The translations under genes and the position numbers were made by a program. A stretch of 64,000 nucleotides of DNA from Candidatus Fraserbacteria bacterium (GTDB lineage: Bacteria > Bipolaricaulota > Bipolaricaulia > RBG-16-55-9 > DRXL01): the NCBI GenBank assembly GCA_947085185.1, contig CAMTVK010000021.1, positions 28,698 through 92,697 on the forward strand, in the 5' to 3' direction. This document shows, one piece after another, positions 50,418 to 55,609 of this stretch. Below the pieces are notes generated by a model that was given only the letters and a program-made list of their open reading frames with translations, did not search any database and was not told the DNA's origin. Each line of letters begins with the position of its first letter. The first letter of the stretch is position 1.

Positions 50418-50996
50418 ATGACGACTATTCCCGGCTACGCCTACGGGAGCGCCGCTCCCTCGCCCGTCACAATGAAAGAGCTCAATGAGCTCAAGCAAGC
50501 CGTGCTCTTCACCCCCGAAGACGAAAGATATCTCAAGATGGCCGGCGAAGTCCTCAAAGACCAGATCGAAGAAGTGCTCGATCTGTGGTACGGCTTTGTG
50601 GGGTCCCATCCCCACCTGGTCTATTATTTCTCTGGGCCAGACGGCAAGCCCGACGCAAATTATCTTGCTGCGGTGCGCAAGCGCTTCGGCCAGTGGATCT
50701 TGGACACGTGCACCCGTCCGTATGATCAGACTTGGCTGAACTATCAGCACGAGATCGGGCTGCGCCACCACCGCACCAAGAAGAACCAAACAGATAGAGC
50801 TCGTTCAGTGCCCATCGTCCCATTACGATATCTCATTGCGTTCATCTATCCCATCACGGCGACGATCAAGCCCTTCTTGGCCAAGAAGGGGCACAGTCCC
50901 GAAGATCTTGAGAAAATGCATCAGGCATGGTTCAAGTCGGTGACGCTCCAAGTGGCGTTGTGGAGCTTCCCCTATGCGAAAGATCGAGATTTCTGA
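50418..50996 (+). CDS. protoglobin
   Basis: IPGYAYG, WYGFVGSHPHL, RFGQWILDT, YQHEIGLRHHRTKKNQTD; matches protoglobin signatures. Confidence 0.93.
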   Translation: MTTIPGYAYGSAAPSPVTMKELNELKQAVLFTPEDERYLKMAGEVLKDQIEEVLDLWYGFVGSHPHLVYYFSGPDGKPDANYLAAVRKRFGQWILDTCTRPYDQTWLNYQHEIGLRHHRTKKNQTDRARSVPIVPLRYLIAFIYPITATIKPFLAKKGHSPEDLEKMHQAWFKSVTLQVALWSFPYAKDRDF

Positions 50997-51586
50997 TGAG
51001 TGAACTCGACGAGAAGCTGGTGGCGGCGCTGGAGCGGCTCTCGCATGTGATGCGAACGCTTCTGTGGGAAGAGGCTGTGCAGAGCCGCCTCAGCCCCATT
51101 CAGATTCAGACGCTGATCTATCTGAGTTCACATCCGGAAGAGCTTTGCCGGGTAGGGCAGCTCGCCCACGAGTTCGGGCTCACCCCAGCGACCATCAGCG
51201 ATGCTGTGGATGCCCTCGCAGAGAAGGGTCTTCTTGTACGTCGGCCCTGGCCTGAAGACGGGCGCGTCTTGACGTTGTGCTTAACGACCGAGGGCCAGCG
51301 TCAAGCGCAAAGGCTTTCGCGTTGGACCGAAGCGCTTCAAGAGCAGATCGCGCCCTTCCCCCTCGCAGAGAAGGAGCGTGCCTTGAGGTTCTTCTTGGAG
51401 CTCATCGAGCGGCTCTATCGCGCGGGGATCATCACAGTTGCGCGGGTGTGCTTGACGTGCCGGTTCTTCCGCGCGAACGCCCATCCCAACTCGCAGACCC
51501 CGCACCATTGCGCATTAATGGACAAGCCCTTGGCCGAGAGCAAGCTGCGCGTCGATTGCCCCGAGCATGAAGCGGCTCATTGCTGA
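50996..51586 (+). CDS. MarR-family regulator with C-terminal Cys/His cluster
   Basis: LSPIQIQ..LAHEFGLTPATISDAV..L..KGL...DGR; CLTC...HHC...DCPEH; TGATG-coupled to protoglobin. Confidence 0.88.
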   Translation: MSELDEKLVAALERLSHVMRTLLWEEAVQSRLSPIQIQTLIYLSSHPEELCRVGQLAHEFGLTPATISDAVDALAEKGLLVRRPWPEDGRVLTLCLTTEGQRQAQRLSRWTEALQEQIAPFPLAEKERALRFFLELIERLYRAGIITVARVCLTCRFFRANAHPNSQTPHHCALMDKPLAESKLRVDCPEHEAAHC

Positions 51587-52134
51587 GCGCTCCTAGAGCT
51601 TTTTGCCAACAGCCAGATCACTCCCACCCCTAACAGCACATCCCCCACGCTGAACGCATTAGCAAACGGCACCCAGCTTGGCACCCAAAAGATATCTCCC
51701 AAAAGATTGAGCTTCGTCTGATCGCTCATCATGATGACATTCCCGAAGACGCCTTCTGTCAGCAATCTCTCGACTGTGGCTGTTCTGCCCGCAGCCCGCA
51801 GGGCTTCAAGGGACGCTGGCATATGCCCCCCATTGACGGTAATGACAAGAAAATTCGAGAGCATCCCCAGGGCCATCAACCACAGGGCCTTCTCGCGATA
51901 ATTGAGCCCCACAAAGAGCAGTAAGAGCAGATACGACCCTATGTGTAAAAACTCCATGCCCCAAGTGACGAGGGGCTTCGATCCTGCCCCTAGGGGCAGG
52001 ATCAGAATTTGCACGAGCACAGCGAGCAGCACCAGCCAGCTTGCACGCAGTTTCAGCTCTGCTAAATGGGCTATCCCTCGATGGCGTACTAGTCCAACGA
52101 GAAGCCCTAAGAGAATCGCCCAGAGGAGAACCAT
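51577..52134 (-). CDS. DUF5317 family membrane protein
   Basis: SNFLVITVNGGHMP, LGDIF and FSVGD motifs; about 5 TM segments. Confidence 0.82.
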   Translation of the reverse strand: MVLLWAILLGLLVGLVRHRGIAHLAELKLRASWLVLLAVLVQILILPLGAGSKPLVTWGMEFLHIGSYLLLLLFVGLNYREKALWLMALGMLSNFLVITVNGGHMPASLEALRAAGRTATVERLLTEGVFGNVIMMSDQTKLNLLGDIFWVPSWVPFANAFSVGDVLLGVGVIWLLAKSSRSAQQ

Positions 52135-53414
52135 AGGGGTTCTTTCAGTTCATCGGAGATGACGCGCACGAGCGCCTCGACGACCTTTGGGTCGAACTGG
52201 CGGCCGCTTTCTGCTTGGATGAGGCGCACGGCCTCGGCGGGCTCGTAGTGTCTGGGTTTCCCTTGGGATTCGCGATACAGACGATCGCTCGTCAGAGCAT
52301 GGTAGACATCAGCGACGTGGATGATGCGTGCGCCCAGGGGGATCTGTTCGCCCTTGAGGCCGTCGGGGTAGCCGGAGCCGTCCCAGCGCTCATGTTCGTA
52401 TTTGACCAAGTGGGCGGCTTCGCTGTACATCTCTAAGTTTTTGAGCAGATCGAAGCCGATGACGGTGTGTTGTTTGACGAGCTGCCATTCGGGGTCATTG
52501 AGGGGGCCGGGCTTATTGAGGATATCGTCGGGGATGCCGACCTTGCCGATGTCATGGACGAGTGCGGCGGTGCGGATCGTCTCGATTTGGTCTTCGGGGA
52601 GTTCCATCTCGCGCGCGATCTTTTCGGCCAAGTCCGCGACTTCTTCGGAGTGTTCTGCCGTGTAGGGATCGCGCTCGTGGAGCATTTTGACCATGGTTTC
52701 GATGGTGCGTTGGGTTTCCCTGCGGAGCTTGGAGTAGCCGCGCAGGGTGAGGTGGACGCCGACGGCAGGGATGAGCACCAAGAGCGTCTGCCAGGGAGCT
52801 TGGACGTAGACGACAGCAGTCAAGATCGCAATGATGCCGATAGCAAGAACTTGGAAGGGGAGATGACGAATATGGAAGGTCACGAGTTTTGAGAACCTGA
52901 TGCGCTGAGTTAGGTGAAGGATCCCAGAAACGAGGATTGTATTTGTTGCCGCGTAGCCGGCATAAGCGAGAACGAGCGGAACTATCTCAGCCAACGATTT
53001 ATACGGTGGCGAATGGCCGCCAAATGCCTGAAAGATCAAGACAGCTGCCCAACTGCTGAGTACTATTTGGCTTGTGTTGAAAGCAACACGAGAGAAAAAA
53101 TATAGCGGATCCTCTCGTAAACGATACCATCGCAAGACGATCTCAGCAAAGAGCGTTCCTAGTAGGACGCTCCAGAGCATTGCTGGCGGCCCGGCGATGA
53201 ACAGTACGGCACAGTATATGATCTCAGATGTTGACATACTGCGCCGTGAAGCAATTTCGACTTCGAAGAGGTCAGCCAAAAACGCAAGGATCGTAGCGAT
53301 CAGCACCAGCATTATCGGTGTCGGATCGTTCTGGATGCGAGGCAAATAGAAACTAAGCGGGGCAAAACTTAGAAGGACGACAAACCAGACATACACTCTT
53401 ACTTGCCAACTCAT
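52107..53414 (-). CDS. multi-TM sensor HD-GYP phosphodiesterase
   Basis: About 6-7 TM N-terminus; DPYT.EHS, HDIGK, HERWDGSGYP, GRQFDP; start at MSWQ. Confidence 0.92.
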   Translation of the reverse strand: MSWQVRVYVWFVVLLSFAPLSFYLPRIQNDPTPIMLVLIATILAFLADLFEVEIASRRSMSTSEIIYCAVLFIAGPPAMLWSVLLGTLFAEIVLRWYRLREDPLYFFSRVAFNTSQIVLSSWAAVLIFQAFGGHSPPYKSLAEIVPLVLAYAGYAATNTILVSGILHLTQRIRFSKLVTFHIRHLPFQVLAIGIIAILTAVVYVQAPWQTLLVLIPAVGVHLTLRGYSKLRRETQRTIETMVKMLHERDPYTAEHSEEVADLAEKIAREMELPEDQIETIRTAALVHDIGKVGIPDDILNKPGPLNDPEWQLVKQHTVIGFDLLKNLEMYSEAAHLVKYEHERWDGSGYPDGLKGEQIPLGARIIHVADVYHALTSDRLYRESQGKPRHYEPAEAVRLIQAESGRQFDPKVVEALVRVISDELKEPLWFSSGRFS

Positions 53415-53435
53415 GTTGGCAGCATTATATGCAAA

Positions 53436-53466
53436 ATAAAAAAGGGAGTCCAATCCGGACTCCCTT
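53436..53466 (-). terminator. intrinsic terminator after the peptide gene
   Basis: AAGGGAGTCC-GGATT-GGACTCCCTT followed by TTTTATTTT on the minus strand. Confidence 0.85.
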
Positions 53467-53487: not shown

Positions 53488-53631
53488 TTATGTCCACTTC
53501 TGACCGGCACCGCTCATGAGCACGAAGGCGCTGATGATAGCGAGAATATAGAGCACCCGCGCCCCGATCTTCTCCTTCACCCAACCGGCTACTCGCTCTG
53601 CTACCTGCCCGTTGTATTCTCCCCACTTCAT
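53488..53631 (-). CDS. unannotated 47-aa membrane peptide (putative signal precursor)
   Basis: MKWGEYNGQVAERVAGWVKEKIGARVLYILAIISAFVLMSGAGQKWT*; AAAGGAGG RBS 8 nt upstream; own promoter and terminator. Confidence 0.85.
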   Translation of the reverse strand: MKWGEYNGQVAERVAGWVKEKIGARVLYILAIISAFVLMSGAGQKWT

Positions 53632-53667
53632 GGTCGTTGCCTCCTTTATGTTGTTGTTGATGGCCAT

Positions 53668-53696
53668 ATTTTATATGCACTTGTATGTTTTGTCAA
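53668..53696 (-). promoter_or_regulatory. sigma70 promoter of the peptide gene
   Basis: TTGACA-17-TAAAAT on the minus strand. Confidence 0.8.
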
Positions 53697-55203: not shown

Positions 55204-55413
55204 TCATAAATATTTTTTGAACTCTTCTTCAGTCATGCCGATCTGCTTCAGGATAGCCCGATAGAGCCCAGACTTTAGCTCTCGGCTATGGACTGGCACG
55301 GTTGTCCATCGTCCATCAGGATGGGCATAGATAGCCTCACTGCCCTTCTGGCGTTTGCGGCGAAACCCCAGCTTTTCTAGGGCCTTCTGCACCTCAGGGG
55401 AGCGCGGCGGCAT
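55204..55413 (-). CDS. hicA: HicA-family toxin (catalytic His replaced by Glu)
   Basis: LEKLGF..RQKGSE..Y.HPDGR.TTVPVH. Confidence 0.88.
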   Translation of the reverse strand: MPPRSPEVQKALEKLGFRRKRQKGSEAIYAHPDGRWTTVPVHSRELKSGLYRAILKQIGMTEEEFKKYL

Positions 55414-55609
55414 AGTCTGGTTCTGGGATGGGCTGCCCAGCTTCCCTCAAATGCTCGATGACAAGCTCCATCGCATCAAGGACGTTCTGCAAGGTCTCTT
55501 CATATGTTTCGCCCTCAGCGAAACATCCTGGAAGTGCAGGGACTTCCGCCCAAAAGCCCCCCTCTGGCGCAGGGTGAATGACGACTCTATACCGGCGCTC
55601 GCTGCTCAT
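55394..55609 (-). CDS. hicB: HicB-family antitoxin
   Basis: EGGFWAEVPALPGCFAEGETYEE. Confidence 0.9.
   Translation of the reverse strand: MSSERRYRVVIHPAPEGGFWAEVPALPGCFAEGETYEETLQNVLDAMELVIEHLREAGQPIPEPDYAAALP

Follow-up and report, generated by a model that had tools for sequence, protein, structure and literature searches.

Signal peptidase II (LspA; MEROPS family A8, PF01252) is a validated antibiotic target and, to our knowledge, the only family of its peptidase clan. It is an aspartyl protease, inhibited by globomycin or myxovirescin, and its substrates have a lipobox that ends in a diacylglyceryl-cysteine. The enzyme, with solved structures from Staphylococcus aureus (6RYP, 6RYO) and Pseudomonas aeruginosa (5DIR), has two invariant aspartates at the outer face of the membrane, 18 residues apart and set in the contexts V/L-x-D and F-x-x-x-D, with a G...N pair on the preceding helix. 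In the S. aureus enzyme (LspMrs) the aspartates are Asp118 and Asp136, also 18 apart, Arg110 contacts the backbone of the inhibitor, and helices H2-H4 have been proposed as the site for the signal peptide (PMC6952399). Here we describe a gene for a protein of the DUF5317 family in a 64,000-nucleotide stretch of DNA from Candidatus Fraserbacteria bacterium, phylum Bipolaricaulota (assembly GCA_947085185.1, contig CAMTVK010000021.1, positions 28,698 to 92,697 of the forward strand; hereafter the window). An earlier note, made from the sequence alone, had read this gene as encoding a divergent LspA-like intramembrane aspartic peptidase dedicated to a neighbouring non-lipoprotein peptide. We found that DUF5317 comes third in a module, preceded by one to five micropeptide genes with a K-W tail and by a gene for a MASE9-like sensor enzyme. 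Its product shares with LspA the aspartate pair, its spacing, predicted membrane side and sequence context, and appears to share a G...N pair and, in models, the way in which the last three helices run and pack.

Several described systems resemble parts of this module. The Agr system joins a precursor peptide (AgrD), a membrane peptidase (AgrB) and a membrane sensor (AgrC). The enterococcal sex pheromones, by way of LspA and Eep, and the SHP and XIP peptides, by way of Eep, arise by cleavage of signal peptides or of short hydrophobic peptides, and MgrB and SafA are small membrane-protein regulators of the sensor PhoQ. Enzymes of cyclic di-GMP (c-di-GMP) metabolism can carry MASE9, a membrane sensor domain of wide distribution that was defined on TM1467 of Thermotoga maritima and is also present in HdgA of Streptomyces venezuelae (10.1101/2021.11.05.467447). 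The window gene upstream of DUF5317 has the same architecture as one class of these enzymes, a MASE9-like membrane domain followed by HD-GYP.

The DUF5317 open reading frame (ORF) claimed in the earlier note is present (Table 1), and its 185-residue product matches PF17248 with an E-value of 2.6e-38 (131.8 bits against a cut-off of 25 bits) over positions 2-150 of the 151-position profile. At E ≤ 0.01, Pfam returned nothing else for this protein, PF01252 included, and NCBIfam returned no match. A profile search showed DUF5317 to be single-copy in the source genome. The cysteine-less peptide with an LMSG/SGA stretch that the note had placed next to this gene is likewise real: the ORF at 53488..53667 (minus strand) ends in VLMSGAGQKWT and contains no cysteine. 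Between these two genes lies a third that the note had overlooked, encoding a MASE9-like domain and an HD-GYP domain and overlapping the start of DUF5317 by 28 nucleotides (nt) at its 3' end. The product of this gene matches HD_5 (7e-40), HD (2.4e-25) and MASE9 (0.0039) in Pfam; its membrane domain scores 17.6 bits against the Pfam cut-off of 24.3 for MASE9 (E 0.0011 in the genome search), and we call it MASE9-like because it is linked by profile-profile comparison to actinobacterial domains, five of which match MASE9 at E ≤ 1e-5.

The three genes travel together in the phylum. Among 61 Bipolaricaulota genomes, DUF5317 occurs in 52, the MASE9-like domain in 49 and the micropeptide, in one to five copies, in 45. 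DUF5317 and the MASE9-like domain are both present in 48 genomes and both absent from 8, with DUF5317 alone in 4 and the MASE9-like domain alone in 1; the genomes are related, and these counts are not independent. Of the four genomes that have DUF5317 alone, three have a locus that runs into the end of its contig. The gene immediately upstream of DUF5317 encodes HD-GYP in 29 of 30 loci, and in 19 of the 20 loci of the phylum for which ten kilobases were taken. One or more micropeptide genes lie directly upstream of the HD-GYP gene in 16 of these 20; of the remainder, two are cut off by the edge of a contig, one has no HD-GYP gene and one yielded no micropeptide.

The case for LspA-likeness had been built on three DUF5317 motifs said to follow the order of the LspA motifs, and all three were found in that order: LGMLSNFLVITVNGGHMP at residues 89-106, LLGDIFWVP at 144-152 and AFSVGDVLLGVG at 160-171. 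In LspA the last two carry the catalytic aspartates. The corresponding residues of DUF5317, D147 and D165, are invariant in every sequence of two sets, 69/69 and 149/149. The first set, of 69 diverse relatives, has 13 invariant columns (N78, G90, N94, N101, G103, P106, G116, D147, P152, F161, S162, G164 and D165). The second consists of the window protein and the 148 best-scoring family representatives, pairwise at most 50% identical, and keeps N78, G90, N94, N101, P106, D147, P152, S162, G164 and D165 throughout. The family as a whole comprises 6,679 clusters at 50% identity (E ≤ 0.001).

The source genome encodes an LspA of its own (L001:1465-1974, minus strand), in which GGALGNLIDR, VIDFL and FNFAD follow one another in that order, and also encodes Lgt; a role for DUF5317 as the housekeeping LspA is therefore ruled out. 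The distance of 18 residues between D147 and D165 equals that between D113 and D131 of the genome's LspA, which are the invariant aspartates in an alignment of 46 LspA sequences. Eight of the 14 conserved LspA residues listed in PMC6952399 have a positional analogue of equal internal spacing in DUF5317: V116/D118 of LspMrs corresponds to L145/D147, F132/N133/A135/D136 to F161/S162/G164/D165, and G102/N106 to G90/N94, the last pairing coming from a low-confidence extension of the profile alignment alone.

DUF5317 is predicted to cross the membrane with five helices and to expose a loop domain of about 60 residues on the outside. Counts of lysine and arginine, read by the positive-inside rule, place loop 1, loop 3 and the C-terminal tail inside and the aspartate-bearing loop outside. 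An AlphaFold2 model of the full-length protein from the 69-sequence alignment (predicted local distance difference test score, pLDDT, 91.6; predicted template-modelling score, pTM, 0.84) has helices at residues 2-18, 32-45, 60-77, 82-100 and 163-177, with the loop domain between helices 4 and 5. This domain contains two short strands, at 147-150 and 160-162; D147 opens the first and D165 lies three residues past the second. Because these strands form a hairpin in the predicted secondary structure, the two aspartates would be brought together.

Residues 55-185, modelled alone, gave a pLDDT of 94.5. When this model was compared by VIA-align with 48,161 representative solved chains, the best match was LspA of S. 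aureus (6ryp_A; Z 6.1, root-mean-square deviation (rmsd) 3.0, 88 residues aligned, 18% identity), and LspA of P. aeruginosa ranked fourth (5dir_A; Z 5.2, rmsd 3.2, 85 aligned, 22% identity). Only seven of the 48,161 chains reached Z ≥ 5, and among the ten top rows the other chains had identities of 4-11%. The range matched in 6ryp_A, chain residues 60-156, covers LspA H2-H4, and helix directions agree with those of H2-H4 because the positive-inside counts place the aspartate loop outside. When VIA-align was used to rescore the 42 chains returned by Foldseek for the same residues, 6ryp again scored Z 6.1 and the next chain 2.7. As the LspA family had been named before any search was run, its rank among modelled fold matches appears far from random.

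The presumed substrate also has the appearance of one suited to an LspA-type enzyme, as its membrane helix ends on the outer side in small residues. In the window, the micropeptide begins with a basic stretch, followed by a single membrane helix; a G-A pair marks the outer end of this helix, and four more residues, K-W among them, form the tail. We aligned 18 Bipolaricaulota micropeptides, encoded by genes of 36-51 codons. They share an MKW start, a basic stretch, one helix and the sequence L-[LM]-S-G-A-x-x-K-W, with K2, W3 and K45 invariant and G41 and A42 at least 90% conserved. The N-terminal part carries 4-7 lysines or arginines and the tail 1-2; the helix spans 14-22 residues, and the tail of 3-8 residues has an invariant lysine and an aromatic residue. 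After G-A-x-x-K-W come 0-3 residues and the stop codon. Judged from sequence, this is the layout of a free-standing signal peptide. None of the 18 contains a cysteine, and a lipoprotein precursor is thereby ruled out.

One Bipolaricaulota locus departs from this pattern (L130, G039:C10, 6942-7409). It has three identical tandem micropeptide copies with the variant tail LLMSETLKWRPG, in which the G-A pair is missing, and the DUF5317 of the same genome keeps both aspartates and has Met for Phe at position 161. This genome could offer a natural case in which to test for co-variation between peptide and protein.

The module extends beyond the phylum. In a scan of one genome per species outside Bipolaricaulota, we obtained 80 DUF5317 loci, nearly all from Actinomycetota, with one from Bacillota. 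Sixty large ORFs adjoining DUF5317 comprised 57 of GGDEF-EAL type, one GGDEF-HD-GYP and two unrelated; the 57 carry an N-terminal membrane part of about 230 residues, and 5 of the 60 match MASE9 at E ≤ 1e-5. The GGDEF-EAL combination is itself among the MASE9 architectures listed in 10.1101/2021.11.05.467447. In ten further loci the partner is a GGDEF protein, an EAL-containing protein or a histidine kinase, in one case with a match to MASE9, and L051 and L109 are alike in this respect, so that at least 70 of the 80 loci place a signalling partner beside DUF5317. By hhalign, the N-terminal membrane domain of the Bipolaricaulota HD-GYP proteins is homologous to that of the GGDEF-EAL proteins from Actinomycetota (probability 99.3%, E 8.9e-21, 220 columns). 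In a set of 14 control genomes, DUF5317 and MASE9 scored above cut-off in the same two, Thermus thermophilus and T. maritima.

Micropeptides accompany these loci as well. We searched 9,766 short frames for a basic N-terminal part, a helix and [VLI]-G-A-[GP]-x-K-[WF] before the stop codon and found 47, against 0 in the reversed and 0 in the shuffled control; the pattern was set after the first matches had been seen, so that its weight lies in the controls and in the positions of the frames. The 47 fall in 41 of the 80 loci, and 37 lie directly 5' of the sensor gene on the same strand. Peptides from the different phyla share G-A-x-x-K-W where the helix ends on the outside. The three membrane parts are retained, and the output domain can be HD-GYP, GGDEF-EAL, GGDEF or HisKA. 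In two actinobacterial loci, L035 and L105, the neighbour of DUF5317 is a membrane histidine kinase with HisKA and HATPase_c (MASE9 at 1.3e-6 in L035); the module can thus have outputs other than c-di-GMP turnover.

The arrangement of signals around the window's micropeptide gene is collected in Table 1. We revised its start from that of the mechanical ORF (53488..53667) to the ATG at 53631, 8 nt past a Shine-Dalgarno sequence, and a site of GGAGG type precedes all 20 micropeptide ORFs that we inspected for it. The start of the HD-GYP gene was moved from a mechanical TTG at 53453 to the ATG at 53414 (MSWQV...), because the TTG falls inside a terminator-like hairpin. This hairpin, followed by a T-run, sits between the micropeptide stop and the HD-GYP start; the 70 nt downstream of the micropeptide fold with -20.4 kcal/mol (z -3.6), and a similar hairpin and T-run follow the last micropeptide copy in about 10 of 16 other peptide-bearing loci, their folds judged by reading. 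It may act as an attenuator. The sigma-70-like site ahead of the micropeptide gene is suggestive only, as the consensus scan found 2 sites against 1.4 +/- 0.9 in shuffled sequence. Together these signals would fit a short, strongly expressed micropeptide transcript, with some transcription continuing into the sensor and DUF5317 genes, as in precursor-peptide genes. Overlapping the hairpin is another candidate promoter, TGGACT-17-TATAAT (10/12, at 53452-53424), from which an mRNA would have almost no leader. Rfam gave no match, and thus no riboswitch, at E ≤ 1 between 51000 and 55500.

Table 1. Positions of the module's genes and candidate expression signals in the window.
Feature	Position	Strand	Basis and details
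Sigma-70-like promoter, TTGACA-17-TAAAAT	53668..53696	minus	Consensus scan, 11/12; ahead of the micropeptide gene
Shine-Dalgarno sequence, AAGGAGG	53640..53646	minus	8 nt ahead of the micropeptide ATG
Micropeptide gene	53488..53631	minus	ORF; start codon and Shine-Dalgarno sequence read from sequence; 47 amino acids, MKWGE...VLMSGAGQKWT
Terminator-like hairpin	53432..53466	minus	Sequence and folding; 11-bp stem with 6 G-C pairs, 3-nt loop, then TTTTATTTTG
Membrane c-di-GMP phosphodiesterase gene	52107..53414	minus	Pfam, sequence; MASE9-like domain of about 235 amino acids and HD-GYP
DUF5317 gene	51577..52134	minus	ORF, ATG start, 185 amino acids; Pfam PF17248

We tentatively propose that DUF5317, acting as an aspartyl peptidase, cleaves the micropeptide near G-A-x-x-K-W and so sets the input of the sensor, a prediction that we regard as quite possible though short of probable. 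The micropeptide would insert into the membrane with its N-terminus in the cytoplasm, and the aspartate pair of DUF5317 at the outer face would cut it near G-A, at the outer end of its helix. Cleavage would release or remove the short K-W tail. The changed state of the peptide would then be the input sensed inside the membrane by the MASE9 domain, and this input would set the breakdown of c-di-GMP by HD-GYP. Here we infer catalysis, substrate, cleavage site and coupling to MASE9 alike. If the proposal is right, the module would be a processing-dependent input device more than a pheromone system of the classical kind, because from phylum to phylum the tail hardly changes and shows no diversification. 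A wider claim, that aspartyl peptidases with the LspA fold have in DUF5317 a second family, one that works at the membrane surface on free-standing, cysteine-less signal peptides and forms with the micropeptide and MASE9 a self-contained, Agr-like input device that processes peptides in several phyla, we consider doubtful and on balance unlikely.

A number of results weigh against a peptidase of LspA type. Profile comparison by hhalign of DUF5317 with the 46 LspA sequences gave a probability of 10% (pairwise E 0.0032) over 29 columns, confined to the last helix, and larger or more diverse alignments gave 5.6-7%; over all runs the range was 5.6-10%, with pairwise E 0.003-0.007 and about 24-29 columns aligned confidently. 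A sequence-profile search of the PDB with DUF5317 returned no match at E ≤ 10. Among 69 DUF5317 members scanned with Pfam at E ≤ 10, Peptidase_A8 was the commonest secondary match, found in three members, with a best E of 0.04. Six of the 14 conserved LspA residues in the list of PMC6952399 have no aligned counterpart (Asp21, Lys25, Asn52, Gly54, Asp109 and Arg110 in LspMrs numbering), and none was seen for D16, Q17, K20, N47, G49, A51 and F52, which are invariant across the 46 LspA sequences. Thus DUF5317 lacks the D...K of LspA helix 1, the beta-cradle N-x-G-A-A-F and the D-R of G-N-x-x-D-R; the positions of this D-R in LspA G-x-x-x-N-x-x-D-R are held by V97 and I98, the latter at least 95% conserved among the 149 sequences. 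The invariant N101 and near-invariant G103 of DUF5317 (N-G-G) come after helix 4, and their equivalence to the beta-cradle N-x-G of LspA would be speculation.

The structural comparisons have their own counterweights. With the full-length model, 6ryp_A fell to rank 42 in VIA-align (Z 5.1, rmsd 3.3, 90 aligned, 17% identity), in a list dominated by helical hairpins matched on residues 29-80. Foldseek against the PDB gave a best E of 1.4 for the full model, with LspA not among the matches listed, and for residues 55-185 it placed 6ryp at rank 41 of 42 (E 9.9, template-modelling score 0.42); an ESM Atlas search with DUF5317 gave no usable match. The Z of 6.1 lies below the level that the VIA-align documentation calls safe, which is Z 8, or about 13 for helical bundles, and is not proof, as a common three-helix arrangement could produce it. 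Outside this region the proteins differ: DUF5317 has five helices where LspA has four, its first two helices and its loop domain are unlike LspA, and about 45 residues of the loop domain, with an invariant N-G-G-x-M-P, stand between the G...N helix and the first aspartate. On the side of the peptide, the near-invariant tail could equally mark a site of recognition, a structural contact or a site of cleavage, and a search of sequencing runs for the locus turned up 5 DNA runs and 0 RNA runs.

Weighing these results, we find the motif likeness between DUF5317 and LspA not significant by itself, and sequence homology is not established. The LspA-likeness claimed in the earlier note is thus supported in part: the invariant aspartate pair, its spacing, its predicted outer face, the best fold match and the conserved cysteine-free peptide gene with the topology of a signal peptide speak for it, and the lack of a significant profile match and of counterparts to 6 of the 14 LspA residues speaks against it. 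Of the comparison with peptidase A8 that the note had suggested, the profile and Foldseek searches were insignificant, and VIA-align ranked LspA chains first and fourth. DUF5317 is not a member of peptidase family A8, because of the modest Z, the insignificant profile comparison and the six unmatched residues. We conclude from the models that it probably carries an LspA-like catalytic core on a different scaffold, with catalysis predicted.

The alternative that survives best is that DUF5317 is a non-catalytic subunit or co-receptor in a stable complex with the micropeptide and MASE9, its aspartates binding the tail lysine, a cation or a ligand, with no cleavage taking place. We hold this to be possible, if somewhat unlikely. 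A tail and an aspartate pair that are both near-invariant across phyla are the pattern expected of a fixed contact, and an input module would be expected to keep its three membrane parts while its output domain varies. Small membrane regulators of sensors are also an established class, MgrB with PhoQ being an example. In one genome (G020), DUF5317 stands alone among unrelated genes (L127, C5), and four tandem micropeptide genes and a MASE9-like gene lie together on another contig (C11:10066-11619); this separation shows that the closest link of the peptide is with the MASE9 sensor gene, not with DUF5317. The absence from DUF5317 of the LspA Asp-Arg pair and beta-cradle residues points the same way, as does the argument for intramembrane ligand binding in the MASE9-defining paper (10.1101/2021.11.05.467447). 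Against this alternative, LspA is the top structural match to the aspartate-bearing part among 48,161 chains, and a mere salt bridge would not be expected to reproduce the exact LspA spacing and the F-x-x-x-D context. DUF5317 also has more invariant polar residues in or near the membrane (N78, N94, N101, S162), as an active site might, and the peptide's putative promoter, hairpin and one to five tandem copies suggest that it is made in excess over its partners, like a substrate that is consumed.

It is improbable, to our mind, that DUF5317 is instead a membrane hydrolase or transferase acting on a lipid, an envelope intermediate or the MASE9 protein, with MASE9 sensing its product or activity and the micropeptide merely regulating MASE9. 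The isolated gene of G020 shows that DUF5317 can sit apart from the micropeptide and MASE9 genes, the family is large (6,679 clusters at E ≤ 0.001), and its own invariant N-G-G-x-M-P and N78 have no aligned equivalent in LspA. Longer DUF5317 forms are rare, and of the six found four carry a major facilitator superfamily (MFS) domain, one carries HD-GYP and GGDEF and one has no other Pfam domain; an MFS gene also lies downstream of DUF5317 in one locus (L087). Against an enzyme with some other substrate, DUF5317 tracks the MASE9 and micropeptide genes in the phylum (both in 48 genomes, neither in 8), 18 loci searched downstream of DUF5317 for a conserved fourth gene, such as an exporter, yielded none that could supply a substrate, their neighbours being variable, and the topology and small-residue motif of the peptide are exactly those expected at an LspA-type site. 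The MFS parts of the long forms (P0241-P0244) belong to PF05977/PF07690, and these proteins are putative fusions; the separate MFS gene is at L087:4570-5901 in an actinobacterial genome. A DUF3352 protein of about 530-610 residues (E 1e-11 to 1e-12) follows DUF5317 in the actinobacterial loci L043, L053, L059 and L088.

That the likeness to LspA is coincidental or convergent, with DUF5317 merely sharing an operon and its function left uninformed, would agree with an hhalign probability of at most 10%, an insignificant Foldseek result, Z values of 5.1-6.1 inside the tool's warning range and a rank of 42nd for LspA with the full-length model, and is very improbable given that LspA was named before the search and both of its cluster representatives then came first and fourth of 48,161, that the aligned parts hold invariant residues at matching spacings, that membrane side and helix directions agree with LspA H2-H4, and that synteny with a signal-peptide-like gene is independent support.

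Returning to the proposed peptidase, its candidate substrate differs from that of LspA in having no lipobox cysteine, so that there is no diacylglyceryl group to recognise. The module as a whole resembles Agr in having a gene for a small membrane-associated precursor, a polytopic candidate processor and a polytopic sensor with a cytoplasmic output, which in two loci (L035, L105) is a histidine kinase. It differs in that no homology to AgrB or AgrD was found (Pfam, E ≤ 0.01), in that its output is mostly c-di-GMP turnover, and in that the micropeptide, unlike AgrD, has a near-invariant tail and no cysteine for a thiolactone; the likeness is one of architecture only. With the pheromone systems the proposed module would share a signal-peptide-like helix processed in the membrane, informative C-terminal residues and aromatic residues in the tail. 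No mature protein stands behind the micropeptide, however, its tail has only 3-8 residues, and the sensor has a membrane domain where pheromone sensors are cytoplasmic and of Rgg/PrgX type. MgrB and SafA, like the micropeptide, are one-helix proteins of 30-50 residues encoded beside a membrane sensor or controlling one, and their systems have neither a third, LspA-like component nor a conserved C-terminal G-A-x-x-K-W.

As far as we searched, the module of micropeptide, MASE9 sensor and DUF5317 is not in print. Our literature search found no paper on DUF5317, PF17248 or 'LspA-like', and nothing relevant on small membrane proteins or micropeptides with c-di-GMP phosphodiesterases. The term DUF5317 does not occur in the MASE9-defining paper (10.1101/2021.11.05.467447), nor 'small membrane' in a survey of Streptomyces c-di-GMP enzymes (PMC6205966), whose passages on the subject mention no partner protein. 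Genes of 36-51 codons may be missed by gene callers, and the module may then be invisible in many annotations. If the proposal is true, a distant LspA relative with a non-lipoprotein substrate would widen the known range of the LspA catalytic design. Should the wider claim hold, MASE9 would gain a first ligand and DUF5317, with its 6,679 clusters, a first function, in a device that would serve thousands of bacterial lineages by driving c-di-GMP turnover or, in some of them, a histidine kinase. The two obligate genomic partners are testable candidates for the MASE9 input.

On the other side of DUF5317, two genes on the plus strand converge on it with a 10-nt overlap. A protoglobin gene (50418-50996, PF11563 2.9e-37) overlaps a gene for a MarR-type regulator of 219 residues (50927-51586), whose C-terminal third is rich in cysteine and histidine (CLTCRFF...HHCAL...CPEHEAAHC). 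The pair stays beside the module in the same genus and may be a haem- or redox-linked regulator pair. Two overlapping small ORFs on the minus strand, at 55204-55413 and 55394-55609, encode 69 and 71 residues, and judging by eye from their translations we take them to resemble a toxin-antitoxin pair of HicA/HicB type.

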